DNA of 64,000 bases from Giardia intestinalis. Lineage: Eukaryota. Every line of letters starts with the position of its first letter. Positions within the stretch are counted from its first letter, which is position 1. The notes under the pieces were generated by a model, which did not search any database, was not told where the DNA came from, and saw only the letters and a list, made by a program, of their open reading frames with translations. A program made the position numbers and the translations under genes. Shown here piece after piece: positions 2,209 to 55,268 of this stretch. Location of the stretch: assembly GCA_000002435.2 (NCBI GenBank), contig CM018792.1. The stretch is one strand, 5' to 3'.

Positions 2209-3978
2209 ATGCAAGTCGAAGACCCTGGTGCGCGTAGCACAGTTCTCACAGAGGTATCCGTGCAGGGCGCCGTGGAGGATGGATCTGCAGCCCAGCAGCA
2301 GGCCGCCAAATCTGCACCTCCGAAGAAGGCTGGATCGCATCTCTATTCGTACGGGACGATGATCGGCATCGCTATAAACTACATTATAGGAACTGGCGCT
2401 CTATCTCTTTCTGTTACCATGGGGAGTGCAGGCGTTCTCATGACAGTCATAATCCTCATCATTGGCTCGGGAATCACTCTCTTTCTTGCGATCTACTTCA
2501 CAGAGGTTTTGGCGCGTGCGTATGCTCTGGCCAGAGGCGGATTTGCTCCCGAAGACATCCTTAACAAGCTGCACGAGTACGAAAATCCCGTCTCGGCCAC
2601 TGCCTCTGCCGAGGGCTCCAACGCAAGCGCTGCCATTGGGAACGCTACTATTGAGGGCGGTAAGGCCTGCAACACACTCTCTCCCGATTACTCTCTTTCC
2701 ACAGAATGCGAGTTTTGCATTTCTGAGCTCATGAAGATGTTCTATGGGAAGCCAGGCTTCTACATCTATCAGGTTTCTAATTTGATCTACTTCTTCGGGA
2801 CGGTCTGGAGCTACGGAAACGTCGTCGCATCGTCTCTGACTTCCATTATTCCGATGTACAGTCTTCCGGGTAGTCCTAAGACGTGGGAGTGTGATGTTAA
2901 TAAGATGAGTAAGTTAGGTGATCCTTGTTATACCGCTTACTGGATTTGGCTGTGTATTGCCATGGTCATCGCTTGTATTCTGATATTCTTTGATTTGAGT
3001 CAGCAAAAGGTCCTGCAAACAATCTTCACTGGGTGCCGATTTGCTACCATTGCACTGGTTCTTCTTTTTACGATTGTGGGATATTCCAGGGGGCCATATT
3101 CTAAAACCTATTCTAAAGGAAATGCTAGCTCAGCCATAAGAATATTGGAAACGGATATATACTGGATTGCTAATCAGTTTTCATCCATTGTATTCTGCCA
3201 GGTTTGCCACCATTCCATTCCGGAAATCATCCGACCAGTCAAGAAGGAGCACCACGGGAAAATTAACTTCGGATTCACAATCACCTATATGGTCATCTTT
3301 GTCATAACGTCGCTTATTTTGTTCATGTGTGGATCGTACTTTGGGACGCTTGGTGAGGGGTTATTGACGCTGAACTTTGGTCAATGGCACGGTACAGACT
3401 GGAATCTCTGTGCTAAAGACAAAACAGGTGGTGCAGAGATGGTTCTTGGCTATATTGTGCGTGTGCTGCCGCCTATATACGTGACGACAGCAATCCCCAT
3501 CAATGCGCTTACAATGTCCAATAATCTTTTGTCGCTTTTCCCTCTGAGGCTCCAAAAGCATCTTGCTTTGGTCGTTTTTGCTAAGCTCATCTCTATCATT
3601 CCGGCTATGATGATGGCTGGGCTCGTTAAGGACCTGAACAAGATTGTCGGCTTCTCTGGACTGACGGGTTTTGTTATTATCAGCGTGTCTGCTCTCATGA
3701 TCATCAAGGGTAGAAAGCTTTGCAAGCAGCACTTTGGAGACGCCAACCTAAGAACGCCGTTCAACTCGTGGTCTTCCCACATCGCTATAATATATACGAT
3801 ACTTGTGATAACTGGCGTTGGGTTCATATTGACAACTTATTCCGTCGTTGCGGATGCAATAGGTAAGGCAAGTCCAAGGTATGTTAGTGAATACCCTGAT
3901 TGCAAAAATAACACGGGTACCACGTCCTTGTCTCTTGTTTCCACTACTGTTGATAATTGTCCGTACAATAAAAAATAA
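2209..3978 (+). CDS. polytopic amino-acid/auxin permease (AAAP)-like transporter, 589 aa
   Basis: About 11 predicted transmembrane helices. The N-terminal IGTGALSL region is typical of amino-acid transporter family members. An AT-rich initiator aaaatatcaaggtatacATG lies upstream. Confidence 0.75.
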   Translation: MQVEDPGARSTVLTEVSVQGAVEDGSAAQQQAAKSAPPKKAGSHLYSYGTMIGIAINYIIGTGALSLSVTMGSAGVLMTVIILIIGSGITLFLAIYFTEVLARAYALARGGFAPEDILNKLHEYENPVSATASAEGSNASAAIGNATIEGGKACNTLSPDYSLSTECEFCISELMKMFYGKPGFYIYQVSNLIYFFGTVWSYGNVVASSLTSIIPMYSLPGSPKTWECDVNKMSKLGDPCYTAYWIWLCIAMVIACILIFFDLSQQKVLQTIFTGCRFATIALVLLFTIVGYSRGPYSKTYSKGNASSAIRILETDIYWIANQFSSIVFCQVCHHSIPEIIRPVKKEHHGKINFGFTITYMVIFVITSLILFMCGSYFGTLGEGLLTLNFGQWHGTDWNLCAKDKTGGAEMVLGYIVRVLPPIYVTTAIPINALTMSNNLLSLFPLRLQKHLALVVFAKLISIIPAMMMAGLVKDLNKIVGFSGLTGFVIISVSALMIIKGRKLCKQHFGDANLRTPFNSWSSHIAIIYTILVITGVGFILTTYSVVADAIGKASPRYVSEYPDCKNNTGTTSLSLVSTTVDNCPYNKK

Positions 3979-5811: not shown

Positions 5812-8800
5812 ATGAGCATAAGTCAAGGGGCAAGCGCCTTCAGCGATCAACCTAGTGATCTTCCTGCTGTGCTGCGCAAGAATGAAGTGAGCGCAGAGCA
5901 CCCCAAGATTAGCGTGTTCTATGACTCTTTACGGCTACGCGAGGGCTATCAAAGCAACCCGGTTCAGCGCGAGGTCCATATCCTCTTTAACAGTTGGGTT
6001 GGAATCTCTAAGCCGCCCCCCTTGCTTCCCCCATCGAAAGATCTTTCTCAACCATTTGGGTGCGACGTTCTTTTCGACTCTATCTCCAGCTCACCGTCCA
6101 CCCCTGTTATGTCCTCTGATCTCTCAACCCCGGGGTGTACATCGTTTAACACAGGATATTGTGAGCTTTCGTATTTGGACAGTCTGAACGAGTCTAGCCA
6201 AAGTGCATCTATAAATGCTGACCCCCACTCCAAAGACCTCACATTTCCTGGCCCTGCTCTTATCCAGCCACTGACACGGGACACCCTCACACGTACTAAT
6301 ACTTCCGGCCTGACTGCTGTTCCTGATTTGCCAACGCTCCCAGGTCTGTCTAATCTGCAGACTCTAAAAGTAGTTCCGAGTGACCTCACGCCACCTATAG
6401 TCTCTATACAATCGGCGCCTGTTCTAAACACTTGGGCTGCCCGGTCTCGTTCAGAAGTGACCAGTGGCGTCTCTCACACCGGCACGGCAAATCCATCCCA
6501 GGCCGACTCACAGACGACAAGTTCCTCCGGCACACGGCGTCAAAAGACTATGGAGCTCACCAACGCAGAAACGGGGATGCATGTTGTTGTTATCAAACCA
6601 GCAGTCAAGTCGCGTACCAAAAAACAGAAGAGAGAGACTGCACAAAACAGAAGCGGCAGCGAGAAGTTACATGCCAACCCCGAAGACGCTCCTCGACGGG
6701 TTGTCCAATCTTCTTCGGATACAACACAGATATTTCTTCCTGCCACTGTTACTCCAACTGCTCAATCATGTGCAGATTCTAAGAGTGATCCCCGCACAGT
6801 TATAGGTCTGACGTTTGAGTCAGAGCACAACAGATGTGAAGCTGATTTTGAGCCGTCCCCACGGAAAAGCAATCCCGATGGCTCATCCCCGGACACATCG
6901 CCCCTCAGTGCTATTGCAGACGATTTGAATCCCCCAATTTTCAATGGCCTGCTTAATGATGCTCTTCTAGATCCGAGGGAGCTGGAAGCAAATTATCTCA
7001 TCTCAAAGAATGACATCGCACTCGACATGGGAGGAGACGGTACCTACTCTGCTACTGATCCAGCGCACTTGCTGGGCTCTCCCCAAAACTGCACGGAGGT
7101 CATCTCAGACTTTTCAAGCACTGAAGTTACATATGAAACACCCCTAAGCGACCGACACCTCAAGTGGCGCAAGTCTGCGACGAAGGACGCTGTTCTTCTC
7201 CATCATACTCAAAGGACCCTGCTGTCTACTTCGGAGGGAAAGGGCTATACATACCAAGGCCGCACCAATTCAAGCACTCATGAACATTGCTTTATGGCTG
7301 ACTTCGACATTTTTCAACCATACAATGCTGCAGGCGTAGAGAGTGTTCTGCAGGCAAAGCGTACACGTAGGGACATTCTGAGTTTGTTGCTCTCTACTGG
7401 CTGTGGCGTAGCGATGAGACTAGGTTCATGGATGGTTACCATCTTATTGTTTGTAGCTTACCTTTTTGCTACGGGGGTGCTATTTGCCGTCAATAGGCTT
7501 TCATCGTTCATGCTCATGTCTCTTAGGGATCCTGTCCGTATCCTGCTACCCTTTGTATTGGTCACTTTCCTTAAGCGCTTGCTGTTTATCATTCCCTTTA
7601 TTTCTCATTATGTGGTGGAGTGGTTCTACCCCAGCATTATCGACGAAGCCCTGCTGGCCAATGGAAGCTACTACGGAGAGGGCAAAGTGCCAGATAAACG
7701 AGTGCTACCCACATATCTTTCATTGGATAGATCGTACAAAGACTTCTTCCCACCCATCTTTGTTCACTCCTCCAAAAAGAAAACAGGTTTTCTCGAGTAT
7801 CTCAAAGTGGTGATGGGGTCCATCCCAGTGAGCGATGTCCTACATAATATGCTCGACCAGACGTTTCAGTTGCGCCTTTACGCCCTCTATGGACAACCGG
7901 GACTGCGCCACGATGTTGGACTGTCCTCCAGCCTGAGCATAGCAACTCAAGACTATTTCGAGGTTCCTCTCAGCAGTTACAAGCTTTTTCATGACACCCC
8001 TAATGGAAGATTGCCACACAGTGGGAAGCAGCAGCTTAGTCGCTACTTTAACAGCTACCTCCCGATACAGGAGCACCATGTGAAGCCAATGACTTTTAGT
8101 TCCGAATACACTCTGGTCGGTAATGACCACTTAACTGAGAATGAGTATCGTCGAGCAAGTCTAAAGATGTACGATGTTGGTGAAAGGTTTAGACAGCCAG
8201 AAGGCAAGGATTATCAGGATATTTATTCTCACTACGGATTGCTAGCCGATCCCCATTCTATATATGAGCGACCGGGGGATGACATACGCTCTAAGAACTA
8301 TCGCTACAGAAGAATCATGGCCGGAGAGTACTTAGTTGTCGTTTCAGGGTCTGTTTCGGACTCCTTCTCGCCCACAGGTACGTCCGCAGATGCAGCAACG
8401 GTCCGGAAGTGGTTGGCCTATGGCTTTGTTCTTTTCGGCAGATCCAGCGTCTATGGGCCATTTATGGCCAAGGACACACATTACATAGTTAACCGAAGAA
8501 TCATTAATAATGACCATACAACGCTAACGGTCTCAGACAATACTGGAAACATTGTACGAATAACGTTGGAAGATCCTAACTTCACCCTTTACTGCCGCTC
8601 TCTGACACCAAGGCATTTGGAGATATCCAAGACTGCTAATGCAAGGGGCGACAACGACTCTATTCATGGAACCTTTGATAATTGTAATTTCAACGATTTA
8701 ATCATTTACTATAATCGCCCATTTACGTTTGATGAGAAGCCAGCGTTTATAAAGTTTGACACATTCGAGACTCTTGACGCCAGAGTGGCCCCCATTGCAG

Positions 8801-11800
8801 AGCGTAAGATCAAAGGCGAAGAGCGCTTGTTAACGGAGGACCTGCGGGTCACTCTTATAGACCCTACCTTCCCCCGCCTCTCCAAGGTCAACAACTCTGC
8901 CACACTGATCACCATCAACCCAAAAGTCCACATAAACGTGCTCTTTCAGAGCAGCAAGGTCCCCCTAGATAGAGTTGTAGAGTGCAGTGGTCGTGACTGC
9001 TCGAATAAGCTCTTGGCCGCGCCAGAGTATCTCCAATACTTTCGACCTGTGTCTGATGATTATCTCAGTTACCTTTCTATTAAGCCCCTTGTGGCGCCTG
9101 TGCCAGTGACACAGAACAGCCTATGGCCTTTCACAGATACTCAACTGGCATATTTCTATAAGGAATTAACGTTTTCCAGAGCACAGGTCACAAGGCAACT
9201 TGAAAGCTGCAGAAATAAAGATAAGAATAGCCACGGAGGCATCGACGAGTCCCAAAGGGATACGGGAATCTCCTCCATTCTCCAGCCGACTAAACATTCT
9301 CGGCATCGGTGCTCGCATTCATATATGGCTGACCTGCAGAACAACCTGAAGGTAATAGATTTGCAGATCCAGGACGTTGTTGCGTCTCAACAAGGCTATA
9401 CAGTCCTTACCTGTCTTTCAAACCGGAGCACAGACGAGCTGAAGACGACAACGCGGAGCCTGCGGACCATGGAGTGCACATTTCTTTTCCAGCGGATCGT
9501 CATTTCGCTTTTTTGTAGCTGGATTCTTTCGTGTGCGATCCACACTCATGCGAAGATTTTTTATGGTCTGGTTCATCAGGTGCAGAAGGGCACCTCACCT
9601 AAGAACAAGTCTAGTGCACATAGCGGCATTGCTGTGTCGTCGTATACGATGCTGTTTATTTCGCTGTGCTCTGGGATTCTCCGCCTCATCGACGCGTCAA
9701 GGAAGGGTGTTCGGAAGCGTACCGCCGTAGACTTTGCCACTTATCTTTTTGCACAAGCAATCAAGAGCTTCATCACCTTCTATCCGATGTACCTCATCTA
9801 TGTGAATGCGCCCAGATTGCTGGCGGCGCTGTACCTATCCAATCTACAGTATCGCTTGATAATAGCGTACGTCGTTGTGATGCTTCTTTCTGGTCAGTTC
9901 TTTGCCCACTTTGGGCTCTATAATCCTGCCAGCGGCCACCTCCCATATAGACTGCTCAAGAGCTTTAGTGAGAAGGTTGGCACGTTGACTCTGACCGTGG
10001 CCAAGAGTACAGCGTTTCGGTCCTTTTCGTTGTTATTATTGCGTGTACTTAACACAGAGCTTCTTCTTGTCGCCCCTGCGCTTATGTGGTTGTTCACTTC
10101 CGTTGTATTCCGGGTTATGTACCATCTTTCCATCGAGGGGATTTATGGGGGTGAGGAGCGGTTTTCGCACTCTCTCTACCGCGTGACTTTTAGTACTTTT
10201 GATTTTGTGATCCACCCTTCTCTATATTCCTCTTCGCTTTGTGTTTTACTGCTAAGTCTATTTCTGCTTCTTTCGTGTGATACGTTCGTTACTAACTGGA
10301 AGCTAACGTACTCTTTGCGACACATGCCCTCTTACACATCACCTGATCAGCAGCTGCCATCATCGTATCTTACTTCTACCTTTTCACAAAAGCCGTTTAT
10401 CCTTTTCGATACTGATTCCGCCCGCTTTGTTGACGAAGTGCGCAAGATCTATCCTGATCTGTTTAATGTGCAACTTGGGGCACAGCCCAAGCGGAAAAGC
10501 GCGCCATCTTCACGCCGGCATTCTGCAGCTTCACCAAGCACCTCCTCTGCCTCCAGCAGCGATGTCTTTTACTTCCGCCCCATCGAGGCTGTTACACCTA
10601 TTTATTATCTGGAAGAGTTGGGGCCTTGGTCACCCAAGATCTATCTTTACGGTAGCGCAGTGTATAAGAAGTTGTTTTCAGTGCCAGGCGTCTATGGATC
10701 CCTAGTTGCCACGACAATCTGGGTTTCTCCTCATGAACCTTATGTTTCGAGTGCGTGTCCAGCTAGTGATGCGTCCTGCACCTTTGCAAATGATATGTAT
10801 CAGGATATAAACTCTCTTCTGGCCCGGCCTCTTCGGTCATATCTCCAGGATTCGCGAAGGTTTTCGACAGTGATGTATGATCAGCCAGCAGATTTTCCGG
10901 GTAAGCATCAGCTGCAGAGCATATTGCATACTAGGGCAACTCTTTTCATTCGAACCACGAAGCGAATGGCGAGAACAGTGAGGCTGCAGTGCGCCACGCT
11001 CCCATGGTCTGTCTTTCTTCCAACCTATGAGTTTAAGATATCGCGATTTGTAATGCCATCCCAAATGCTTCATGCATTGGTATTCAACAATGCTCCTGGA
11101 CAGCCCATTGATCCTGTGATGAGCCTCGCCCTTTTCTTCAATGGAATAACTTTACCCTCGGCTCTGCTTCACCAAATGGTTCCGATGCAGTACACCTTCA
11201 CCGCTTCTCCTGAAGCAATACTCAAGTTGCAAAATTCTTTTGGGCACAGTCTTGTCAAGTATCTGCTTCTTCCTGTGAGTGGATATATGGTGACCAGAGG
11301 CTCGTCAGTTTCTCCGCCGAGCTTCCATTTGAACATTGTCGATCGCCCAGTCAGGCACGTTATCAATAGCGGAAGTGAGCAAGTGGAGACGGCCAGGTTC
11401 TTGTTAACTGACGACGAGGTGAACAGGGCAGTCAGCCTGGGAAACAACTTACTCGGAGGGCTCAAGGAGGTGCTCACTATTGACCAAGGAGAGCAACTGA
11501 GCAAGACCTCCGCTCCTCTGGGTGCCATAGTTCGTGACGACATGATTCCGAGGCTTACGCCACAAGATCTGCTGTTTGTGCTCTCGGTGTCGTTTTTGGA
11601 TTACTTTACAGTCGGCCACTTGCATCAAAGTCCTGATTCTCTGTCGCAAGATTTTCTACTACATTGCCCCAGCGACCTTGTACGCGCGAAGGACACAAGC
11701 CGGCACCGTGAGCATTCTGGAACCACAGACTCGCTGGGGAATCATATACCTTCTATCCGTGGTGGTATATATAATAATTATTTTCGACACGAGCTGAAGT

Positions 11801-13173
11801 GCTTGCGCTCAGACTATTCTCGACTTTTGCAGTACATCTGCCGGAAGGATGCCACCGAGTGTGGATATCTTCCTTTAGATCTCAGTGTGTATCGCCTCGT
11901 CTCCATCTTGGGGCGTCTGCCTCTTTTCAATCAGGGTTCTGTGTTAAGCCAGGGCACCCTATTCAACTTCAATCACTGCAATCTGCTGACCTGGATCGAT
12001 GGAGTGCTAGAGAAGGTTGCGGGTCATCGGGAAGTTCACAGCTGCTGTGCAGGGTTTGCTTCTGTGGTTTTCGAGGCATCCTCTGCGAGTCTCAGGTTCT
12101 TCGGACTAAATAAGAAAACAGTATCTGCCTTTCTTAGTAGGTTGGAACAGCCAGAGGAATACGTAGATACGGAGTTAGAGCGTGCCACATTTACTGAAGA
12201 TAAAGACTTAGATAGTACCTTGCTGGATTCCATTAACTTCGTCATCAACAGAATATATTTGCGCGTGCTGGAGCTTTCTGTCCTCAGCGTAGTTAGTCGT
12301 GCTGTCAGCACCATGTACCACTTTGTTCTTCAGGCATCCGGTTACACCACTGGTTCTTTGGAGCATCTCGCAGACGGGTTTAGGCGTGGAGAGGTCTACA
12401 CATCCTTCTTTATGGCGCTCCCGTCTTCTGTACGTCAGCTTTATAACGAAGAGCACAACCTGTTTTGCAATACATGTAACAGGGAGCTTCTAGAAATGTT
12501 TCGGCTTTCAGACGCGCACAGACTTGTAGCAGACTATGCCATGCAGAACCAGCTTTGTTCCTCGTGCTTTGCAAGCTATTACACCAACATTGTCTATCCT
12601 CTTGCTTCTTATGAGAGCGACATCACTTCGTTTCTCTTTAAGCGAATTGCAAAACAATTTACCAAGGCTTGGTGCTGTGAAGATGTGCTTTCGCTAATAT
12701 ATCATGCTGGCTTTGTTTCCGATGAGTACTTCCTCAAGCAGCTGTGCCACGAAGCTAATGCATTCATCAAAAAGGCACCTCCAAGCGCATATGCAATCAC
12801 CACCAGTGGATGCGTAGTAATAAGCTCTGGTGAGCTAAGTGAGGAGACACGCATTCTGAGACTGCATAAAGTATCCGAGGCCCTCTTGAGTGCGTTGCTG
12901 CAGATCCAAAGGATGCGTCATGTCTGCATGTTTAAGGCGCAGACATATCAAACTTGTGTCCCGTATGCTACATATTGCGAGTCTCGGTTATACGTCGAGG
13001 ACTCGCAACACCTAGCCTTGTTACACACTCTCTTAAACAACGAGAAGGAGCATGCGGGTGCTAAGGATATGTTCCTATATTCATCTAAACATGAACCACT
13101 AGGTCGTGCATGTAAGCAAGGGCTACGCACAGATTGGTATTATGCTCTCATCCAAAGCTGTAGCAAATCTTAG
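5812..13173 (+). CDS. giant hypothetical protein, 2453 aa, with internal clusters of transmembrane helices
   Basis: An uninterrupted 7.4 kb ORF preceded by the initiator aaaaataaacaaacattATG. Hydrophobic helical clusters occur around residues about 500-560 and about 1250-1500. All antisense ORFs inside it are short. Confidence 0.7.
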   Translation: MSISQGASAFSDQPSDLPAVLRKNEVSAEHPKISVFYDSLRLREGYQSNPVQREVHILFNSWVGISKPPPLLPPSKDLSQPFGCDVLFDSISSSPSTPVMSSDLSTPGCTSFNTGYCELSYLDSLNESSQSASINADPHSKDLTFPGPALIQPLTRDTLTRTNTSGLTAVPDLPTLPGLSNLQTLKVVPSDLTPPIVSIQSAPVLNTWAARSRSEVTSGVSHTGTANPSQADSQTTSSSGTRRQKTMELTNAETGMHVVVIKPAVKSRTKKQKRETAQNRSGSEKLHANPEDAPRRVVQSSSDTTQIFLPATVTPTAQSCADSKSDPRTVIGLTFESEHNRCEADFEPSPRKSNPDGSSPDTSPLSAIADDLNPPIFNGLLNDALLDPRELEANYLISKNDIALDMGGDGTYSATDPAHLLGSPQNCTEVISDFSSTEVTYETPLSDRHLKWRKSATKDAVLLHHTQRTLLSTSEGKGYTYQGRTNSSTHEHCFMADFDIFQPYNAAGVESVLQAKRTRRDILSLLLSTGCGVAMRLGSWMVTILLFVAYLFATGVLFAVNRLSSFMLMSLRDPVRILLPFVLVTFLKRLLFIIPFISHYVVEWFYPSIIDEALLANGSYYGEGKVPDKRVLPTYLSLDRSYKDFFPPIFVHSSKKKTGFLEYLKVVMGSIPVSDVLHNMLDQTFQLRLYALYGQPGLRHDVGLSSSLSIATQDYFEVPLSSYKLFHDTPNGRLPHSGKQQLSRYFNSYLPIQEHHVKPMTFSSEYTLVGNDHLTENEYRRASLKMYDVGERFRQPEGKDYQDIYSHYGLLADPHSIYERPGDDIRSKNYRYRRIMAGEYLVVVSGSVSDSFSPTGTSADAATVRKWLAYGFVLFGRSSVYGPFMAKDTHYIVNRRIINNDHTTLTVSDNTGNIVRITLEDPNFTLYCRSLTPRHLEISKTANARGDNDSIHGTFDNCNFNDLIIYYNRPFTFDEKPAFIKFDTFETLDARVAPIAERKIKGEERLLTEDLRVTLIDPTFPRLSKVNNSATLITINPKVHINVLFQSSKVPLDRVVECSGRDCSNKLLAAPEYLQYFRPVSDDYLSYLSIKPLVAPVPVTQNSLWPFTDTQLAYFYKELTFSRAQVTRQLESCRNKDKNSHGGIDESQRDTGISSILQPTKHSRHRCSHSYMADLQNNLKVIDLQIQDVVASQQGYTVLTCLSNRSTDELKTTTRSLRTMECTFLFQRIVISLFCSWILSCAIHTHAKIFYGLVHQVQKGTSPKNKSSAHSGIAVSSYTMLFISLCSGILRLIDASRKGVRKRTAVDFATYLFAQAIKSFITFYPMYLIYVNAPRLLAALYLSNLQYRLIIAYVVVMLLSGQFFAHFGLYNPASGHLPYRLLKSFSEKVGTLTLTVAKSTAFRSFSLLLLRVLNTELLLVAPALMWLFTSVVFRVMYHLSIEGIYGGEERFSHSLYRVTFSTFDFVIHPSLYSSSLCVLLLSLFLLLSCDTFVTNWKLTYSLRHMPSYTSPDQQLPSSYLTSTFSQKPFILFDTDSARFVDEVRKIYPDLFNVQLGAQPKRKSAPSSRRHSAASPSTSSASSSDVFYFRPIEAVTPIYYLEELGPWSPKIYLYGSAVYKKLFSVPGVYGSLVATTIWVSPHEPYVSSACPASDASCTFANDMYQDINSLLARPLRSYLQDSRRFSTVMYDQPADFPGKHQLQSILHTRATLFIRTTKRMARTVRLQCATLPWSVFLPTYEFKISRFVMPSQMLHALVFNNAPGQPIDPVMSLALFFNGITLPSALLHQMVPMQYTFTASPEAILKLQNSFGHSLVKYLLLPVSGYMVTRGSSVSPPSFHLNIVDRPVRHVINSGSEQVETARFLLTDDEVNRAVSLGNNLLGGLKEVLTIDQGEQLSKTSAPLGAIVRDDMIPRLTPQDLLFVLSVSFLDYFTVGHLHQSPDSLSQDFLLHCPSDLVRAKDTSRHREHSGTTDSLGNHIPSIRGGIYNNYFRHELKCLRSDYSRLLQYICRKDATECGYLPLDLSVYRLVSILGRLPLFNQGSVLSQGTLFNFNHCNLLTWIDGVLEKVAGHREVHSCCAGFASVVFEASSASLRFFGLNKKTVSAFLSRLEQPEEYVDTELERATFTEDKDLDSTLLDSINFVINRIYLRVLELSVLSVVSRAVSTMYHFVLQASGYTTGSLEHLADGFRRGEVYTSFFMALPSSVRQLYNEEHNLFCNTCNRELLEMFRLSDAHRLVADYAMQNQLCSSCFASYYTNIVYPLASYESDITSFLFKRIAKQFTKAWCCEDVLSLIYHAGFVSDEYFLKQLCHEANAFIKKAPPSAYAITTSGCVVISSGELSEETRILRLHKVSEALLSALLQIQRMRHVCMFKAQTYQTCVPYATYCESRLYVEDSQHLALLHTLLNNEKEHAGAKDMFLYSSKHEPLGRACKQGLRTDWYYALIQSCSKS

Positions 13174-13252
13174 TTTTCTACCTGGACAAGTATTCATTAC
13201 TTCATTAGATGGCCATAGAAATAACTACTTGTACACAAATGGACCTAGAAGT

Positions 13253-13375
13253 GGTGCTGAAAGACGCGCCCGCCCGGCCCTTGACCCTCGTGGCCCCGTC
13301 GTCGGTGTTGGGCACGACGCGCCGCTGGGCCCTCTTGATGGGCGACTCGTCCGGAGGCTCTCCCGTCCACGTACT
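13253..13375 (-). pseudogene. about 120-bp, about 70% GC coding-like remnant in an intergenic region, with GC3 periodicity on the minus strand
   Basis: The minus-strand reading ACG TGG ACG GGA GAG CCT CCG GAC GAG TCG CCC ATC AAG AGG GCC CAG CGG CGC GTC GTG CCC AAC ACC GAC GAC GGG GCC ACG AGG GTC AAG GGC CGG GCG GGC GCG has G/C at almost every third position. It is flanked by normal-composition DNA. Confidence 0.3.
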
Positions 13376-13733
13376 TAGCACTATCCACGAGTTCACTTGT
13401 GATAAGAGGGCAAACAGTGAGGCTTGGTCATAAAAATGGAAATTCATGTGGTTATCGATAGTGGACAGGCATACCTAGAGCCGTCACGCAAGTATTCTGC
13501 CTCATATAGGAAAGATCCTAGGCCAGAAATGGCCGAATGCGAGGGCTGGTCTGTATTTGCGGAACTGTCTCAGTTGTTGCGGAAAGCTGAGGAAGACGGC
13601 TTTCCTCTGCTCTAAAAAGTCCCCTTAGTGGCTATGGGCGGCATAGACAACTATCCTTTCAGCGACAACTAGGTTTTAGTAAATCTTTGAGCTCAACACC
13701 GGGAATCTTGACTTCAGTAAAATTTCCAGGTAA

Positions 13734-15398
13734 ATGCACAAGCCGCACACAACGTCCAAGTACAGGAAGGAAAGTGCTAGGCGTGTAGGGGAGGGAGGTA
13801 CTGGGGGAATATATATGGCACGGAACATAGCCACTGGGGAGCGCGTTATTCTTAAGGAAATAAAGTTAAGCAGTGCCGACGAGGGACTAGCAATATCAGG
13901 TCTTCGGGAGAGCTGCATATTATCTTCGTGCAGACACGAAAACATCATCAGAATTATCGAGACCTATTACTGGCGGAAAAACATCATCCTTGTGTTAGAG
14001 CTCTGTGAAAGGGACATCGGCGCTGTACTGAACGATGGATATACCATTCCAAAGGAGTTCCGCCAGTCCATTTTCTTTATGGCTCTACGGGGGTTGCATT
14101 ACCTCCACAGTAAGTGGATTTTGCACCGTGACATAAAACTGTCGAACATCTTGATTGCACACGACGGAACAATAAAGCTGACTGACTTTGGTCTGAGCAG
14201 GTATTACAAATATAATGGCTTTGACACTGGCAATGTAGGAACACAGACATATAGAGCACCCGAGCTAATTTTGAAGGGGCAGCAATCCACACCTGCATCC
14301 GATGTGTGGAGCATGGGCATCTGCTTCTGTGAAATCATTTTTGGGTGCGATGGATCAAACTACACGTTCTATGATATGGTCTCTTACGAGTTGAGCATGA
14401 TGACGCATGAACCTGGCGGCAGCGGCTGCCAGCGCCATAAGGCAATCAACGCCAAAGATTTTAGGGAAGAAATACCGAAGTCTCACGGGGACGTACGCGA
14501 CACAACAATGCTCACTACTCTAAAGGAAGCCCTTGGCTATCCATCTTTGGAGGAGCGACAAGGTCTTTCACAAAATGACATTTATCGTGTGATATTCCCG
14601 GACGAGAAACATAACAAGGAAAGCAACCATGCGCCGAGCAATCCTTCCAGACTACTTAGAGATATACTGCACAAACATGGCGGGTCTGAAGAGGAAATAG
14701 ACCTCATTCTTCACATGCTGAATTGGTCGCCCTATATAAGGTACACCTCAGATCAGTGTCTTAGTCACCACATGTTCGCTAATATTTACTCCAGTTCCAA
14801 AGTAGATTGTACAAATAAAGTTGATAGCCAAATTATTCACAGTAGCCCTTCTGTTGTGAAGCACAGATTATCAGAGTTTCCTCGCAACAACCACCTAACC
14901 ACACGGCCAGATCAGAAACACAAGCAAGTCGCTATACCACGACTCAATACGCACAGCATAGTTCAAGACCATGTCCTCGACTTTGACGCACAGGTGCAGT
15001 TTCATAGTATTGACGGTCAGCGAGACCTTTCGTATTCCTTTTTGCTTGGTGCCTCTATGCTTGGTGAAAACTCTAACACGCCCCACTGTGGTCGGCACGA
15101 GTCTAACAAGCAGGAGAACGGTGTGCTCTCCAGGTTGCCCCTTCCACTAGAGTGTTCGGACGACAGTTCATGCGTAGTGTCATCAAAGAGATCCCACCCG
15201 CCGGTATGTCGCGAACAGGACCAAGAAGACCCAGTGCTACTCAACATGCTCAACAGCCTTACAGGTGGGTGTAATGAAGATCAGCTAGAAAGCGTGCATC
15301 GAAGTAGTCCTTTTGGATGTTTGTCTAGAAATTGGCAACAGAGCGCGTTTCATCAAGAAGCCACCAATGTAGACAATTCTTGGGATGATGCTAGTTAG
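13734..15398 (+). CDS. CMGC/CDK-like serine/threonine protein kinase, 554 aa
   Basis: Contains GEGGTGGIY, VILKEI, HRDIKLSNILI, DFGLSR and YRAPE motifs plus a PSTAIRE-like segment, followed by a long non-kinase C-terminal extension. An AT-rich leader lies upstream. Confidence 0.85.
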   Translation: MHKPHTTSKYRKESARRVGEGGTGGIYMARNIATGERVILKEIKLSSADEGLAISGLRESCILSSCRHENIIRIIETYYWRKNIILVLELCERDIGAVLNDGYTIPKEFRQSIFFMALRGLHYLHSKWILHRDIKLSNILIAHDGTIKLTDFGLSRYYKYNGFDTGNVGTQTYRAPELILKGQQSTPASDVWSMGICFCEIIFGCDGSNYTFYDMVSYELSMMTHEPGGSGCQRHKAINAKDFREEIPKSHGDVRDTTMLTTLKEALGYPSLEERQGLSQNDIYRVIFPDEKHNKESNHAPSNPSRLLRDILHKHGGSEEEIDLILHMLNWSPYIRYTSDQCLSHHMFANIYSSSKVDCTNKVDSQIIHSSPSVVKHRLSEFPRNNHLTTRPDQKHKQVAIPRLNTHSIVQDHVLDFDAQVQFHSIDGQRDLSYSFLLGASMLGENSNTPHCGRHESNKQENGVLSRLPLPLECSDDSSCVVSSKRSHPPVCREQDQEDPVLLNMLNSLTGGCNEDQLESVHRSSPFGCLSRNWQQSAFHQEATNVDNSWDDAS

Positions 15399-47543: not shown

Positions 47544-49673
47544 ATGCAGCTACCTAAGGTTTATCGGAAGTGCAAAACATGTCTAGTAGGAAATAGTCTG
47601 CTCCATTGCGTCGCCGAATCACTCACTGTACAAGGTCTGACTCCTGAAAAACTAATCTCACTAGCCAAGCGGCTAGTAAGCAAGTGCTCTGGGGTGGGTC
47701 ACGCTTTGATTTCATACTATAGCGTGACTATAAAAGGTGTTAGCACAATAGAGTTTATATCTCCATATGTAGGATGGTCCATAGAAGACTATCTCATGCT
47801 TACACTATATGAGGGAAGGACCATTCCAGAGGAACAAGTATATAGATTTATGGCCGCCATCATTTGGATACTTAACCAGCTCGTGCACATATGCAGAACC
47901 TCACTTCTTATGTGGATCTTTCTTGGATACGCCAATCTATCACTAAATAATTTCTGCCTAGATGAGTTTGGAGCAATACGTTTCCGCTTAGATCTAGGTC
48001 ACACGCTAAAGAACATGATACTGGTCGATGAACGACTTGCGGACTGGCCACGGATCAAAGGGAGTGAGTTAGGTGTTCATCTTAAACTGCATATAATACA
48101 GTGCATCTTACGTCTAGCGTTTCCCCTTAACAATTTAGAAATAAATGGAATTGATCCGTACTCGGGCGCATTTTCTCGAGTATTTAAAGACTCGGAACGA
48201 AGCAAGGTGTTTTGCAGTCGCATGGAGCGTTTAATTTATTTATTTCAAAAAGAAGACATAACGTTAAGTCATATATTACATACAAACTTATTCAAAACAG
48301 AATTAGAAAAGTACTGGCAATCCTTGGGCATAACAGCAGATGACGATGCATCAACGCCTCTCATCGACTCTGTGCGTGCAAACGATATACAAAAAATATA
48401 CAATTTTTATGGACGGCAGGCTGGAATGATGACTTCTTCTGGTAAAACTGCACTTATGATAGCAGCTTCCAGAGGAGACACACGCGTGACCACACTCTTA
48501 GCGACACGGGAAGCTAACTACAGAGACATTTATGGAAACTATGCAACTCTGCTGGCAATCAAGAATGGATACAAAAATGTGGCGTTGCACCTTGCAGCGT
48601 ATGAGTCCATGGTTCTTCAAGAGGATGGTATCACCCCGTTAATGCTTCACGTTATCGGCAAAAATCTACAAGTCCCATTTCAAGAACTGATACAGGATGC
48701 GGGGAAGCAAATGAAAAATGGATTTTCTGCTCTTATGATTGCTTCCTTGACTAATGATCTGGACTATTCAATGGTACTCGCAAAGAAAGAGGCAGGATTG
48801 TGTAACGCAGAAGGGAAGACAGCAGGAACACTAGCTAACGAGCAAGGAAATACACAAATTTCACAATTCTTGGCTCGTTATGAAATAGTAATGGGAGTTG
48901 ATGGAGAAACACAGCTTCATCAAGCAGTATTAGCGGGTGATCTGCGCGCAGTGGAAGCTTATGTACATGCTGCACGTTCATATAATAAGGCTGGCTATAC
49001 AGCGTTAGGATTAGCAGCAAAGTTCAATCATACTGATATCATAAAAACTCTGATTCCCCACGAAGCTGGGATGCGGTGTAAAGTTAGCTTCGAGGCATGC
49101 GGCAGGACGTTTCAGGATCCAACGGCTTTGGCCATAGCAGTCTATCATAATAACGAGCAGGCAGTGAATCTTTTAAAACGGTATGAGGCAGGATTGGGAA
49201 TGAAGCCCCTCCAAACTACTGCCATGATGCTTGCAGCAGCGTGCGGATATAGCGGACTTATATCTCTTCTGCGAACTCGAGAAGAAAAGATGCAAGACAC
49301 ACACGGCAACACCGCGCTGATGTACGCCGTGAATAGCTCTTCCCTAGACGCAGTTTATAAACTAATGAAATACGAATCTCGAATACAAAATACAGAAGGA
49401 TACACTGCACTTATGTATGCTGCCTTCCACAATAAGGTACAAATTGTTGCTGCTCTTATGAAACTGGAAGAGGGGATGATCAATGTGCAAGGCGAACCGG
49501 CTATTATCTGTGCTATCAAGGCAGAAGCTAAAGAGTGTATAAGTATACTTGTTCGAGGATCAGAGGTGTCGTATTCTAAACAGTGTATTGAAATGATTAA
49601 ATCCAGTGCTACACTGACTTGCGCTATGAAGAGAGTTATGTTGAGGTATTTTAAAGAGGAGAAATTTCATTGA
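47544..49673 (+). CDS. degenerate NEK-like pseudokinase domain fused to an ankyrin-repeat array (Giardia 21.1/NEK family), about 709 aa
   Basis: The N-terminal about 300 aa show a kinase-like fold with degenerate motifs (LSLNNFCLDEFGAIRFRLDLG, with no HRD or DFG). The C-terminal repeats are TALMIAASRGD, TPLMLHVIG, TALMYAVNSS and TALMYAAFHN. The initiator gataactttaaaaATG lies upstream. Confidence 0.8.
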   Translation: MQLPKVYRKCKTCLVGNSLLHCVAESLTVQGLTPEKLISLAKRLVSKCSGVGHALISYYSVTIKGVSTIEFISPYVGWSIEDYLMLTLYEGRTIPEEQVYRFMAAIIWILNQLVHICRTSLLMWIFLGYANLSLNNFCLDEFGAIRFRLDLGHTLKNMILVDERLADWPRIKGSELGVHLKLHIIQCILRLAFPLNNLEINGIDPYSGAFSRVFKDSERSKVFCSRMERLIYLFQKEDITLSHILHTNLFKTELEKYWQSLGITADDDASTPLIDSVRANDIQKIYNFYGRQAGMMTSSGKTALMIAASRGDTRVTTLLATREANYRDIYGNYATLLAIKNGYKNVALHLAAYESMVLQEDGITPLMLHVIGKNLQVPFQELIQDAGKQMKNGFSALMIASLTNDLDYSMVLAKKEAGLCNAEGKTAGTLANEQGNTQISQFLARYEIVMGVDGETQLHQAVLAGDLRAVEAYVHAARSYNKAGYTALGLAAKFNHTDIIKTLIPHEAGMRCKVSFEACGRTFQDPTALAIAVYHNNEQAVNLLKRYEAGLGMKPLQTTAMMLAAACGYSGLISLLRTREEKMQDTHGNTALMYAVNSSSLDAVYKLMKYESRIQNTEGYTALMYAAFHNKVQIVAALMKLEEGMINVQGEPAIICAIKAEAKECISILVRGSEVSYSKQCIEMIKSSATLTCAMKRVMLRYFKEEKFH

Positions 49674-50611
49674 ATACCAAACCTTTGTGATAGTTTTCTT
49701 GCCCGTTCCATGTCCATGCTTAGTACAGTTGATAGTCCTTTCCAAATGACAGGGTCGAACTCATGTTGGTAAGCAGAATCTACTTGATCATCTGATTGCT
49801 GCGTATCCGAAAAACAAATTGTTGACCTAACATATAAAGACTCATATTCGTGCTTATTAAGGTCTATTTGTAGACCATGAATTGCGTAAAGTCGTTGCTG
49901 TTCTATCTTATCTGTGTATCTTCTTATCGTAATTAATCCTTCTGCATACAATTGCGCTATATCAAAGATAGCATGCACCGTTCGAGTAAAGTCTGTTGGG
50001 CTGAGAAATACGAAGGCCAGGGGGTAGAAGCCGCGGCGCGAGAGCTCCGTGACCCGCGCGAGGAGCCCCTGCTTCCGGCGCTCCTGGAGCTCGGCGCCGC
50101 ACATCGCGAGGGCCTCGTAGCGCCGCCGCTCGACGGCCTGCGCGCCGGAGGGCTCTGCCTCCCGGGGCCGCGGGGGAGCCCTGGGGGCTGCGGGCCCTGC
50201 GGTGCCGGCGGCGCACCCCGCGTACAGCGAGGCCGCGAGCTCGGGCGGGAAGCGGGCGGCGTACCCGGCCTGGAACGCGTCGGCGAGGAGGCGCAGGTCG
50301 ACGCGCGGCGGGTCTGCAGGGGCCCCGGCCCGGGGGAGGAGCCGCAGCTGGCCGCGGAGGAAGCCGGCGCCCTGGTCCTCGGCCGCCCGGGCCACCCGCG
50401 CCTCCAGGCTCCGGGCAGACAGGCGCACCGTGGCGGACAGCGCGGCCTCCGTCTGCAGCATCAGGCCGACGTCCCCCCGGGGCTGGGCGGCGTAGGACTC
50501 GTAGCCGTCCCGGAGCTCGGCCAGGAGCGCCGTGACCGCCGCGTGGTCCCGGGCCTGCGCGGCCGCCTGCACCCGGGCGGAGACGCTCGCGAGGCGCGCA
50601 CGGGGCTCCAT
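49667..50611 (-). CDS. hypothetical protein, 315 aa, spanning the island boundary: the N-terminal about 200 aa are encoded in about 80% GC DNA and the C-terminal about 110 aa in normal-composition DNA
   Basis: An in-frame ATG at 50609-50611 is preceded by an AT-rich patch inside the island. GC3 periodicity is strong up to ...GGC TTC TAC CCC CTG GCC TTC and then becomes GTA TTT CTC AGC CCA ACA... The upstream extension in the six-frame track (to 52009) is Arg/Pro/Gly junk. Confidence 0.55.
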   Translation of the reverse strand: MEPRARLASVSARVQAAAQARDHAAVTALLAELRDGYESYAAQPRGDVGLMLQTEAALSATVRLSARSLEARVARAAEDQGAGFLRGQLRLLPRAGAPADPPRVDLRLLADAFQAGYAARFPPELAASLYAGCAAGTAGPAAPRAPPRPREAEPSGAQAVERRRYEALAMCGAELQERRKQGLLARVTELSRRGFYPLAFVFLSPTDFTRTVHAIFDIAQLYAEGLITIRRYTDKIEQQRLYAIHGLQIDLNKHEYESLYVRSTICFSDTQQSDDQVDSAYQHEFDPVIWKGLSTVLSMDMERARKLSQRFGIQ

Positions 50612-50653
50612 CGGACGGGGCGGAATTTTGCCGGCCGGCCAAAAATTCACTCG
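50612..50653. promoter_or_regulatory. 42-bp divergent promoter inside the GC island, with two AT-rich initiator patches flanking GCCGGCCGGCC (aattttgccggccggccaaaaatt)
   Basis: These are the only AT-rich nucleotides for kilobases. They sit exactly between two divergent ATGs, at 50611 on the minus strand and 50654 on the plus strand. Confidence 0.55.
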
Positions 50654-51793
50654 ATGGACTGCATCGGCCGCGGCGTCCTCCTCCCCCCGGGCGGGGCGTG
50701 CTCGTGCGGGGCGCTTCTGGCGGAGCTGCAGCGGGTCTGCCCCCTCCTCGCCGCCTCCCCGGGGGTCTGCGCCGCGCCCCGGGCCCTTGCGTGCTGCCAC
50801 CAGCCCCCGTGCCTCGAGATCGCGCCGGCGCCGGCCACCCCGCGCAGCGCCGTCCGGGTCCCTGGGTCCGCGTGCACGGCTCCACCGCCCGCCGCAGGGC
50901 CCCCGGAGGCCGCCCCGGCCGAGAGCGTCCAGGTGACCCTCAGCGCCCAGCGCGAGTCGTTCGTGATGCAGACGATGCGGCAGGCGCACTACGGCGGCGG
51001 AGAGGCCCCCGCGAGGGCGGAGAGCGCCCGCCTGCCCGCCCCGCAGGCCTCGGACCCGAGGGAGGCCCGGCGGAGCCACGCGTCCCGCCCGCGGACGGCC
51101 GGCCCCCGCCTCCCCGCCTGCCCCGAGGAGCCCCCCGGCAGGGTCCAGTTCCGGGGCGCCCCCGAGGCCCCGCCCCTGCGCTGCGAGCCGGCCCCGCCCT
51201 CCGAGTTCAGCGACTTCGGGTGCGAGCTGCTCGCGGCGGGCCAGCCCGAGGACCGGCGGGTCTGCGGCGCCCCGTGGGTGGACGCGCAGGACCTGCTGAG
51301 CGACGGCTCCGAGCACAGCGAGTTCTACCGCCTCGTCGAGAGGGAGCTCGCGCGGCTTCCGGAGCCCGCGGCCCCGGCCCTCCCGGAGAGCGAGCCCTCG
51401 CTGGACGCGCTGCCCGTGCACGCCTCGCCCCGGGGCCCGCAGATCATCGAGCCCACGCCGGCCGCCCTGCAGGAGCCAGAGGAGCCCGCGCCCCCGCAGC
51501 CCCCCACGCCGGGCCGCTCCGACAGCGTCTCGGCAGACATCACGGAGTCGCTCCTCGTGGAGGGCCGGCCCCTGCCCGACCGCCCCCCGGGCCCGGAGCC
51601 GTCCGAGGGCAGCGCCGGGTACAGCGGAGAGGCCTTCGACAGCTCCGGCTCGCCCCGGGGCCTGACCGACGAGGCCGCGGGGTCTGCGGGCCTGGACGAG
51701 GAGGACCTGCTGGGGTCCGTCGGCGGGGACCTGCGGGCGCTGCTCATGGACAGCGGGTCCGGGTCGCTGTCTGCGGGGGCCTGGCCGGAGTGA
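50654..51793 (+). CDS. GC-island gene: Cys-containing N-terminus and an acidic Pro/Glu/Ser-rich disordered C-terminus, about 379 aa
   Basis: Strong GC3 periodicity in this frame. The ATG follows ccaaaaattcactcgATG. The TGA stop is embedded in AGTGAAC at 51789-51795. The upstream part of the tool ORF (49952-50653) is antisense to the previous gene and is rejected. Confidence 0.55.
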   Translation: MDCIGRGVLLPPGGACSCGALLAELQRVCPLLAASPGVCAAPRALACCHQPPCLEIAPAPATPRSAVRVPGSACTAPPPAAGPPEAAPAESVQVTLSAQRESFVMQTMRQAHYGGGEAPARAESARLPAPQASDPREARRSHASRPRTAGPRLPACPEEPPGRVQFRGAPEAPPLRCEPAPPSEFSDFGCELLAAGQPEDRRVCGAPWVDAQDLLSDGSEHSEFYRLVERELARLPEPAAPALPESEPSLDALPVHASPRGPQIIEPTPAALQEPEEPAPPQPPTPGRSDSVSADITESLLVEGRPLPDRPPGPEPSEGSAGYSGEAFDSSGSPRGLTDEAAGSAGLDEEDLLGSVGGDLRALLMDSGSGSLSAGAWPE

Positions 51794-51816
51794 ACTCGGG
51801 AGAGCCTTTTTATTGA

Positions 51817-54327: not shown

Positions 54328-54334
54328 CGTTCAC

Positions 54335-55264
54335 TCAATCAGGGGCACCTGACCCCAGGGCGGCCCGCAGGCCCGCGACCTCCCCCCGGAGCCGGGCGAC
54401 CTCGTCCTCCAGGGCCTTGAAGCGCAGGGCCGTCGCGACCGCAGGCGCCCCGCCCTCTGCGTCGAGGAGCTCCACGAGGGCCGCGGCGGTGAGGCGGCGC
54501 TCCGGCTCCAGGACGAGGAGGTGGGCGAGGACGCCCCGGACGACGGGGTCCCCGACCGCGCCCAGGTCCGGCCGCCAGCCCGCGACGTAGACCTCCGCGG
54601 GGGCCCGCCCGGAGAGGAACGGGGGCCTGCCGCCCGCCGCGAGCTCGTAGGCGACCATCCCGAGGCTCCACATGTCCGCGGCCGGCGTGTGGCTCCCGCC
54701 CCGCAGGACCTCCGGCGCGGCGTAGACGGGGACGGCCATGGAGGCGAGCCCCCCGGGGCCCTCCCTGCAGAGCCCGAAGTCGGAGATGGCGAACTCCGCC
54801 CCGGCCTCGTCGAGGAGGACGTTCGCGGGCCGCAGGTCGCAGTGCGTGAGGGCGGGGAGCGGGGCGCCCGCGGCGTCGGTCTTCCCGGGCCGGTGGAGGT
54901 AGGCGAGCCCCGCGCCCACCTGGCGGAGGACGGCGACGACCATCTCGCGCGGGGCGAGCTGCCTTCTGCGGCGGAGGCTCCGGATGGCCCCGTCGAGGGA
55001 GCCTGCGTAGCGCCGCATCTCGACGTAGATGTAGCCCTCGTGCCGGACGACGCGCCCGTACTCGACGACGTTCGGGTGGCGGAGGCGCGGGAGGGTCCGG
55101 AGCTCGAGCTCGAGCGAGGCCTGCGCGTCGGGGGGCAGCCCGTCGGTCGGGATCTCCTTGACCGCCCTGTCGGGGGCGCTCTTCAGGCCGTAGACGGTCC
55201 CGTGGGCCCCGCTCCCGAGCTCTGCGCCCAGGTCTTCGAGGAGGGCGTCGATGGCCTCGGACAT
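54335..55264 (-). CDS. GC-island gene: protein kinase with an intact catalytic core and a C-terminal coiled coil, 309 aa
   Basis: Contains GSGAHGTVY, VKEI, HCDLRPANVLL, SDFGL and APE motifs, with GC3 near 100%. The initiator gattaaaaagATG sits in the AT-rich flank. The TGA stop is embedded in AGTGAAC on the minus strand (54335-54329). Confidence 0.85.
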   Translation of the reverse strand: MSEAIDALLEDLGAELGSGAHGTVYGLKSAPDRAVKEIPTDGLPPDAQASLELELRTLPRLRHPNVVEYGRVVRHEGYIYVEMRRYAGSLDGAIRSLRRRRQLAPREMVVAVLRQVGAGLAYLHRPGKTDAAGAPLPALTHCDLRPANVLLDEAGAEFAISDFGLCREGPGGLASMAVPVYAAPEVLRGGSHTPAADMWSLGMVAYELAAGGRPPFLSGRAPAEVYVAGWRPDLGAVGDPVVRGVLAHLLVLEPERRLTAAALVELLDAEGGAPAVATALRFKALEDEVARLRGEVAGLRAALGSGAPD

Positions 55265-55268
55265 CTTT

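Follow-up and report, generated by a model that had tools for sequence, protein, structure and literature searches.

A sharply bounded, GC-saturated patch in a Giardia intestinalis spacer, tentatively read as a GC-biased, conversion-like tract of assemblage A

The spacer between a giant ORF and a CMGC kinase of Giardia intestinalis WB contains a short patch (13253–13375) with an anomalous base composition. All coordinates refer to the window, i.e., the whole 64,000-nt stretch of contig CM018792.1 that was analysed. The patch is sharply bounded, shows a three-base periodicity, is restricted to assemblage A, and differs from the corresponding stretch of assemblage E mostly by G/C in A over A/T in E. 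We read it, with a probability of roughly 45%, as an in-situ, GC-biased (conversion-like) tract that arose after the split of assemblages A and E. It is not a fragment of the genes in the GC-rich island at 50–55 kb. The features of the locus and of the island are as follows (coordinates, strand where assigned, description).

5812–13173: giant ORF, 2453 aa, "membrane spanning protein" XP_001706101
13205–13447, minus strand: 80-codon ORF, former GL50803_90329 (XP_001706102), a hypothetical protein of 2007; the patch is its middle
13209–13433, plus strand: 74-codon ORF with the same third positions, present in gene calls on Logan/ENA contigs; three TTG Leu codons
13253–13375, no strand: GC-rich patch, 71.5% GC, borders 10–20 nt wide
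13256–13263, plus strand: left anchor GCTGAAAG (ACTGAAAG in P15), kept in A and E; bounds the divergent stretch
13269–13297, minus strand: G-quadruplex-type motif GGGGCCACGAGGGTCAAGGGCCGGGCGGG
13278–13352, no strand: saturated core, 25 of 25 G/C at coordinate mod 3 = 2; other phases 0.52 and 0.64 GC
13373–13381, plus strand: right anchor ACTTAGCAC, kept in A and E; opens a conserved block that runs into the 59-codon gene
13436–13615, plus strand: conserved 59-codon gene, apparently unannotated, in the same gap as the patch
13734–15398: CMGC CDK kinase, XP_001706103; kinase confirmed by Pfam
49667–50611, minus strand: 314-codon ORF with a weak Nse4_C match; spans the left edge of the island, with the border near 50012–50020
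50–55 kb: island with GL50803_23876, GL50803_60704, a NEK kinase and the 5' two-thirds of the weakly Nse4-like ORF

Exact protein look-ups assign the window to WB (ATCC 50803, assemblage A), on a 2.76-Mb chromosome. The gap that holds the patch measures 560 nt, from the end of the giant ORF (13173) to the start of the kinase (13734). Pfam also recognised an XPB helicase and L7Ae near the locus. The first-pass annotation had described a 120-bp patch of about 70% GC in this gap, and both the measured GC content and the minus-strand sequence of 13253–13375 agree with that description. In 60-nt windows, the GC content reached 0.73, against a background of 0.42–0.50 (about 46%). Outside the island, 100-nt windows with at least 66% GC were found only in the patch (maximum 0.76) and in a weaker set at 1367–1554 (maximum 0.69), which overlaps the nucleoside diphosphate kinase (NDK) ORF at 1230–1685. 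The observed/expected ratio of CpG was 1.09 in the patch and 0.76 in the background. The G-quadruplex-type motif is the sole one in the 58 kb outside the island, and it is probably a by-product of composition. An assembly artefact was rejected, given that three assemblage-A lineages, assembled independently, all contain the patch. One-strand, editing-type hypermutation was rejected informally, as there is no strong G-vs-C skew in the patch.

The claim of a coding-like saturation with G/C at third codon positions was borne out as well. The GC content per codon phase over 13253–13375 was 0.90/0.66/0.59 (permutation p = 0.004). A scan statistic with block shuffles also gave p = 0.004 after correction for scanning, with the complete G/C phase of the core at 13278–13352. 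Both the minus-strand ORF 13205–13447 and the plus-strand ORF 13209–13433 have their third codon positions at the saturated phase, so the strand is not fixed by composition alone. Four of the six frames are open across the patch.

In WB, each of the two ORFs runs intact from a start codon to a stop codon. The minus-strand ORF, whose frame is the one quoted in the first-pass annotation, was apparently dropped from the 2020 re-annotation, where the flanking genes KAE8304010 and KAE8304011 are consecutive. The codon log-likelihood was highest for this frame, and Pfam had no match to either ORF. The ATG of GL50803_90329 sits antisense within the conserved 59-codon gene. Position 13207 is A in WB and G in P15 and the remaining A lineages; the stop of the minus-strand ORF is therefore WB-specific, and G would turn this TAA into CAA and lengthen the ORF. 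In P15, the plus-frame ORF is broken by a stop, and a 1-nt indel puts the ATG of the minus-strand ORF out of frame. In assemblage B, the minus-strand ORF has no start codon, stops lie upstream, and indel polymorphism is present. The minus frame is the only one that is stop-free in both WB and P15 between the anchors. The anchor-to-anchor lengths of WB and P15 differ by 36 nt, which is a multiple of three. These two observations leave some room for past coding constraint. At the protein level, the similarity between A and E was weak (p = 0.076 in the minus frame and 0.013 in the plus frame). A reading frame conserved between A and B was rejected by manual reading, since the 8-mer common to both, CTCTCCCG, lies in different frames on both strands.

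The 59-codon gene in the same gap encodes the protein MEIHVVIDSGQAYLEPSRKYSASY...DGFPLL and has an A-rich start context, typical of Giardia. It is kept not only in assemblages A, E and B but also in two other lineages, probably C and D; its changes fall mostly on third positions, and 30 residues are invariant across the lineages. The gene is known only from automatic Logan/ENA gene calls, has no NCBI or UniProt accession, and appears to be unannotated in the reference genomes. At its site, the old annotation called the antisense ORF GL50803_90329 instead. Searches of Pfam and the PDB gave no match to the protein. We also considered the patch as a tandem paralogue of this gene, on account of a 19-nt repeat that likens MDLEVVL to MEIHVVI, and rejected it at an hhalign probability of 0.7%. 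In G. muris (CM016928.1), a 415-aa minus-strand gene (2725–3972 of the piece examined) lies between the giant ORF and the CDK kinase; it has no Pfam match, and nothing that corresponds to the 59-codon gene appears among the G. muris gene calls for this interval. The content of the giant ORF–kinase interval thus differs among Giardia species. The patch as a relic of the 415-aa gene was rejected, as tblastn detected no similarity between them.

The island at 50017–55265 is 5.2 kb long, with 79% GC and a GC3 of 0.96. Its GC1/GC2/GC3 values are about 0.8/0.58/0.96, none of its 242 Leu codons is TTG, and TTA is also unused. The encoded proteins are almost devoid of K, N and I, with K and N at about 0.3% each. 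The CpG observed/expected ratio is 1.05, compared with 0.76 in the background, and the genes are separated by short AT-rich promoters of the Giardia type. The island genes have 'd'-tagged loci (the convention is described in PMC7000408) and near-identical second accessions on the same chromosome, with a third one for the NEK kinase, which indicates that the island is duplicated in WB. The 314-codon ORF crosses the island border: its GC3 is 0.85–1.0 over codons 1–200 (at least 0.90 in 9 of 10 bins of 20 codons) and 0.2–0.45 over codons 201–300, and the switch takes place within about 20 codons. The exact model of this protein was absent from the protein collection searched. A GC3 switch inside one ORF implies that, in this genome, extreme GC belongs to tracts with sharp limits and not to genes, and the patch looks like a miniature of an island-type tract.

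The first-pass annotation had seen the same signature in the patch as in the island genes. This holds for the saturation of third positions (GC3 of 0.84–1.0 in the patch and 0.96 in the island), and two further likenesses are that CpG is depleted in neither and that both have sharp borders which ignore gene limits. The rest of the signature differs. GC1 is 0.57–0.67 in the patch against 0.78–0.85 in the island genes, and the second codon position is also lower in GC. The patch uses TTG three times if read in the plus frame, or encodes K, K, N and I if read in the minus frame, all of which are almost never used in the island genes; under the island codon model, the score is negative for every one of the six frames. 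The two regions also differ in size (0.12 kb vs 5.2 kb). When the patch was compared with the whole window, including the island genes, blastn with a word size of 7 returned matches of 10–12 nt, and tblastx returned E-values of at least 0.005, calculated without composition correction; we attributed these weak matches to shared composition. Neither program found a second copy of the patch in the 64-kb window. The proposal that it is a piece of the island genes therefore fails on nucleotide and translated similarity as well as on codon and amino-acid usage.

The related idea of debris from a dispersed or mobile family was not supported either. We found no target-site duplications or terminal repeats at the patch, and the flanking repeats were short and at chance level. 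The spacer has gained no net length to speak of (WB 560 nt, P15 550 nt), and between the same anchors assemblage E carries a stretch that is weakly alignable with the patch. When the 48-aa minus-frame peptide was run through HMMER exhaustively against 1.84 billion representative proteins, only its own ORF and one spurious match were returned. The latter, an animal-type protein in which eight HYR-like tandem repeats matched over about 22 residues each at 39% identity, was rejected because repetition had inflated its score. An exact 30-mer of the patch was absent from the JGI metagenomes, and pattern scans of metagenome and prokaryote collections gave no real match. The homologue test for the plus-frame peptide was a pattern-seeded scan of prokaryotic genomes. 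A Vibrio match with 10 identical residues, LKDAPARPLT (11 of 12 over VVLKDAPARPLT), was dismissed as chance; the surrounding stretch had no ORF of at least 60 aa, and the match came from more than 600 pattern-seeded candidates.

The spacer was compared among orthologues from DH (A2), A2-like contigs and a third A lineage, from P15 (assemblage E), and from GS and many other assemblage-B assemblies. Two additional lineages, with kinase identities of 75–76% and probably representing assemblages C and D, were also included. The patch was present in all the assemblage-A lineages compared. Within A, five sites are variable (13266, 13294, 13310, 13311 and 13370), and all the changes are from G/C to A/T. 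They fall on codon positions 1/2/3 in a 1/2/2 ratio, without a third-position excess among these five sites, which agrees with the neutral expectation. The density of variants in the patch is about twice the local value, which is not significant. The variation within A is thus neutral-looking.

Between the two anchors, WB has 109 nt with 74% GC, whereas P15 has 73 nt with 45% GC. The two stretches align better than shuffled sequences (p = 0.006–0.016), although the alignment is weak. Its mismatches comprise 15 with G/C in WB over A/T in P15 and two of the reverse kind. In a MAFFT alignment, the ratio of G/C-in-A over A/T-in-E to the reverse was 25:6, against a background of 2:1 over 4.6 kb. 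The bias was highest at the saturated phase (8/23 vs 7/43). The GC jump from P15 to WB is limited to 13250–13399 (0.67 vs 0.45), and the adjoining 150-nt bins differ by only 0.01–0.09. In the unconstrained spacer next to it, A and E share about 69% identity. The sequence of the patch itself is not conserved among A, E and B, and beyond the flanks, A and E are weakly alignable. Over the mostly coding 4.6 kb at 10734–15398, WB has 47.7% GC and P15 42.7%, with the G/C-in-A differences exceeding the reverse by about 2:1, which indicates a genome-wide compositional drift between the two assemblages. The presence in E of a positionally orthologous, AT-richer stretch, within a spacer of nearly equal length, argues for change in situ rather than for inserted debris.

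The assemblage-B contigs that carry the kinase, whether short-read, 454 or metagenome-derived, essentially all end at or inside a GC-rich stretch at this site. The Logan contigs of B all start at exactly the same base. One contig from a B gut metagenome reaches 775 nt upstream of the 59-codon gene. Most of this extension has 55–78% GC, with a dip to 43–52% at about 241–360. It resembles neither the end of the WB giant ORF nor, apart from the right flank and the 8-mer, the WB patch. The lack of the 3' end of the giant ORF in these 775 nt suggests a large insertion or a break of synteny. In the GC stretch (490–720 of the gut-metagenome contig), two B haplotypes disagree at 29 (15%) of 193 positions, compared with about 2.5% in the flanks. 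They also differ there by a 1-nt indel, which was seen on manual reading of the sequences and in their diverging ORF translations and was not reported by the aligner. The GC stretch of GS has a period-3 pattern of its own (0.92 vs 0.62 and 0.70, p = 0.045). To judge by these contigs, the B site is GC-rich, hypervariable and structurally different from that of A, and divergent B alleles probably explain why the contigs break here.

Giardia rDNA has a GC content of about 75%. The possibility that the patch and the island are pieces of it was rejected, as Rfam gave no SSU, LSU or 5.8S match in the window; this exclusion covers the parts of the rDNA that these three models represent. Accordingly, no rRNA was present in the island by Rfam. 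No Rfam model matched the window at the gathering score, and none matched 13100–13800 at E ≤ 10. No tRNA genes were found. The patch folded no better than its shuffles on either strand (z = +0.70 and +1.45). Known Giardia ncRNAs are followed downstream by a 12-nt 3' processing motif, [T/A/C]C[C/A]TT[T/C][A/T/C][C/T/A]T[C/T/A]AA, and are conserved in sequence among assemblages (PMC3510501). The motif had three matches in the 64 kb, as expected by chance, and none in 13100–13750.

On our preferred reading, GC would have been gained in the lineage of assemblage A, at some time between its separation from E and the divergence of its sublineages. Most likely, the mechanism would be a recombination- or repair-associated GC-biased fixation over a tract the size of a gene conversion, and the same regional process may have made the 5-kb island. 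This tract would have fallen on a short lineage-restricted ORF, most plausibly the 80-codon ORF of the minus strand, and such a placement could have completed G/C at one codon phase while A/T was left at the other two. The tract would now be decaying by G/C to A/T changes. We detected no constraint on the patch today, and on the sequence data it is probably non-functional. A recent or maintained GC-rich state in A would suit either a change in situ or a newly pasted fragment; the alignment with P15, the kept spacer length, and the lack of both a donor and an insertion signature all favour the former. The reading also draws on the GC3 switch at the island border, as a sign that such a regional process acts in this genome, and on the instability of the site in assemblage B. 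A neutral relic that predates the A/E split is unlikely, since A and E share only about 69% identity in the adjacent unconstrained spacer, and we estimate that a run of 25 of 25 would not survive neutral decay at that level.

We must also note what sits less easily with a GC-biased tract. Conversion hits all sites, and on its own it would not produce a three-base periodicity; past coding constraint is needed in addition, yet neither ORF is conserved. The periodicity is thus the main unexplained residue, and it needs either past constraint on a non-conserved ORF, which we infer, or a coincidence of about 0.4%. As for the direction of change, we infer a gain in A; the only outgroup, assemblage B, is also GC-rich and has the 8-mer in common with A, so a loss in E could account for the difference as well. 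Finally, all five variants within A run from G/C to A/T, and ongoing GC-biased fixation is therefore not visible.

The main competitor, which we consider rather unlikely, is a captured fragment. According to this explanation, about 110 nt of GC3-saturated sequence from an unknown donor gene or cDNA were pasted in during break repair in the ancestor of A, replaced the original stretch, and have been decaying since. It is the idea of the first-pass annotation without the link to the island genes. Such a fragment would account well for the strong period-3 signal with its complete G/C phase, the four open frames, the sharp borders, and the fact that, in the minus frame, most A/T bases occupy the first two positions of codons for K, N, I, D, E and T. 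The within-A variants, all from G/C to A/T and spread over the codon phases, are also what dead sequence would show, and the GC stretch of B has its own period-3 pattern. Against capture, no donor was found: the island and the rest of the window have no match, the minus-frame peptide has no real match among the 1.84 billion proteins, and the metagenome and prokaryote scans found nothing real. The patch also aligns with P15 above chance in a spacer whose length was kept, and neither target-site duplications nor terminal repeats accompany it. A small protein gene that evolves fast, functions today and has the patch as its middle, be it GL50803_90329 or the 74-codon plus-strand ORF, is improbable, more so than capture. 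This proposal draws on the once-annotated 80-codon run from ATG to stop in WB, on the minus frame as the sole one stop-free in WB and P15 with a length difference divisible by three, and on the best codon log-likelihood in that frame; by our estimate, such an open run in DNA of 38% GC has p of about 0.03 by chance, with the choice of frame allowed for. However, the start lies antisense within the 59-codon gene, is out of frame in P15 and absent in B, and the WB stop results from a WB-specific change at 13207. Three of the five within-A variants are off the third position, the B haplotypes differ by the 1-nt indel read manually in the GC stretch, neither a Pfam match nor a homologue was found, and GL50803_90329 is apparently absent from the 2020 re-annotation.

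A functional non-coding element, i.e., a small RNA gene, a G-quadruplex or another structural signal acting on the neighbouring genes, is very improbable. The sole G-quadruplex-type motif outside the island does sit in the patch, and A and B are both GC-rich just upstream of the 59-codon gene. The searches for Rfam matches (at E ≤ 10), tRNA genes, stable folds (z = +0.70 and +1.45) and the Giardia 3' processing motif in the spacer were negative, however, and the sequence is hypervariable within B and not conserved among A, E and B, unlike the known Giardia ncRNAs. Least credible of all is that base composition simply fluctuated here by chance. The stretch was picked by eye and is short, but it is the only such window in 58 kb of non-island sequence besides the weaker NDK region, its periodicity retains p = 0.004 after scan correction, and its GC jump relative to E is sharply local.

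Tracts of GC-biased gene conversion, seen as clusters of biased substitutions, occur in other eukaryotes at recombination hotspots and in multicopy genes such as those for rDNA and histones. The patch resembles them in its size of about 100 nt, in its sharp borders, and in its differences from the sister lineage E, which are overwhelmingly G/C in A over A/T in E and exceed the 2:1 background. It also diverges faster than its flanks, and it lies in a genome with larger GC-extreme regions. It differs from such tracts in that the change is not polarised, in that a three-base periodicity is not expected from conversion alone, and in that the polymorphism within A is all from G/C to A/T, with no excess of A/T to G/C. 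In Giardia, biased gene conversion has been proposed for the rDNA only (PMC10123126), and the paper on the assemblage-B genome speaks only of broad "high GC% islands" that surround VSP genes (PMC2723961). In the searchable literature, we found no description of sharply bounded GC-saturated tracts in Giardia.

GL50803_90329 also invites comparison with the over-predicted small ORFs of the 2007 WB annotation that were removed in the 2020 re-annotation (PMC7000408). Like them, it is short, lies antisense over the start of a real gene, has no homologue, and is gone from the newer annotation. Unlike ordinary spurious ORFs, it has a centre with a statistically supported codon-phase pattern.

On its own, the patch is a small curiosity, and it changes no gene model, save that GL50803_90329 is confirmed as doubtful. 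It also carries a practical warning, as its site breaks essentially every assemblage-B short-read assembly examined. Taken together, the patch and the island, whose saturation stops abruptly inside an ORF, show that in Giardia extreme GC goes with tracts and not with genes. A broader proposition, which we regard as speculative and less likely than not, is that Giardia chromosomes hold tracts with sharp limits, ranging in length from about 110 nt to over 5 kb, whose silent sites have been driven close to 100% G/C without respect for gene limits, and that GC-biased gene conversion left these footprints. In that case, the patch would be one such footprint of conversion-tract size, dated between the A/E split and the radiation of A, at a site that in assemblage B is hypervariable and differs in structure. 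To our knowledge, sex in Giardia has never been observed directly, and a sexual cycle is still debated. If the proposition is true, the tracts would map recombination or homologue-to-homologue conversion from sequence, and if they mark biased conversion, a cross-assemblage catalogue of them would be a cheap map of past recombination and conversion events.
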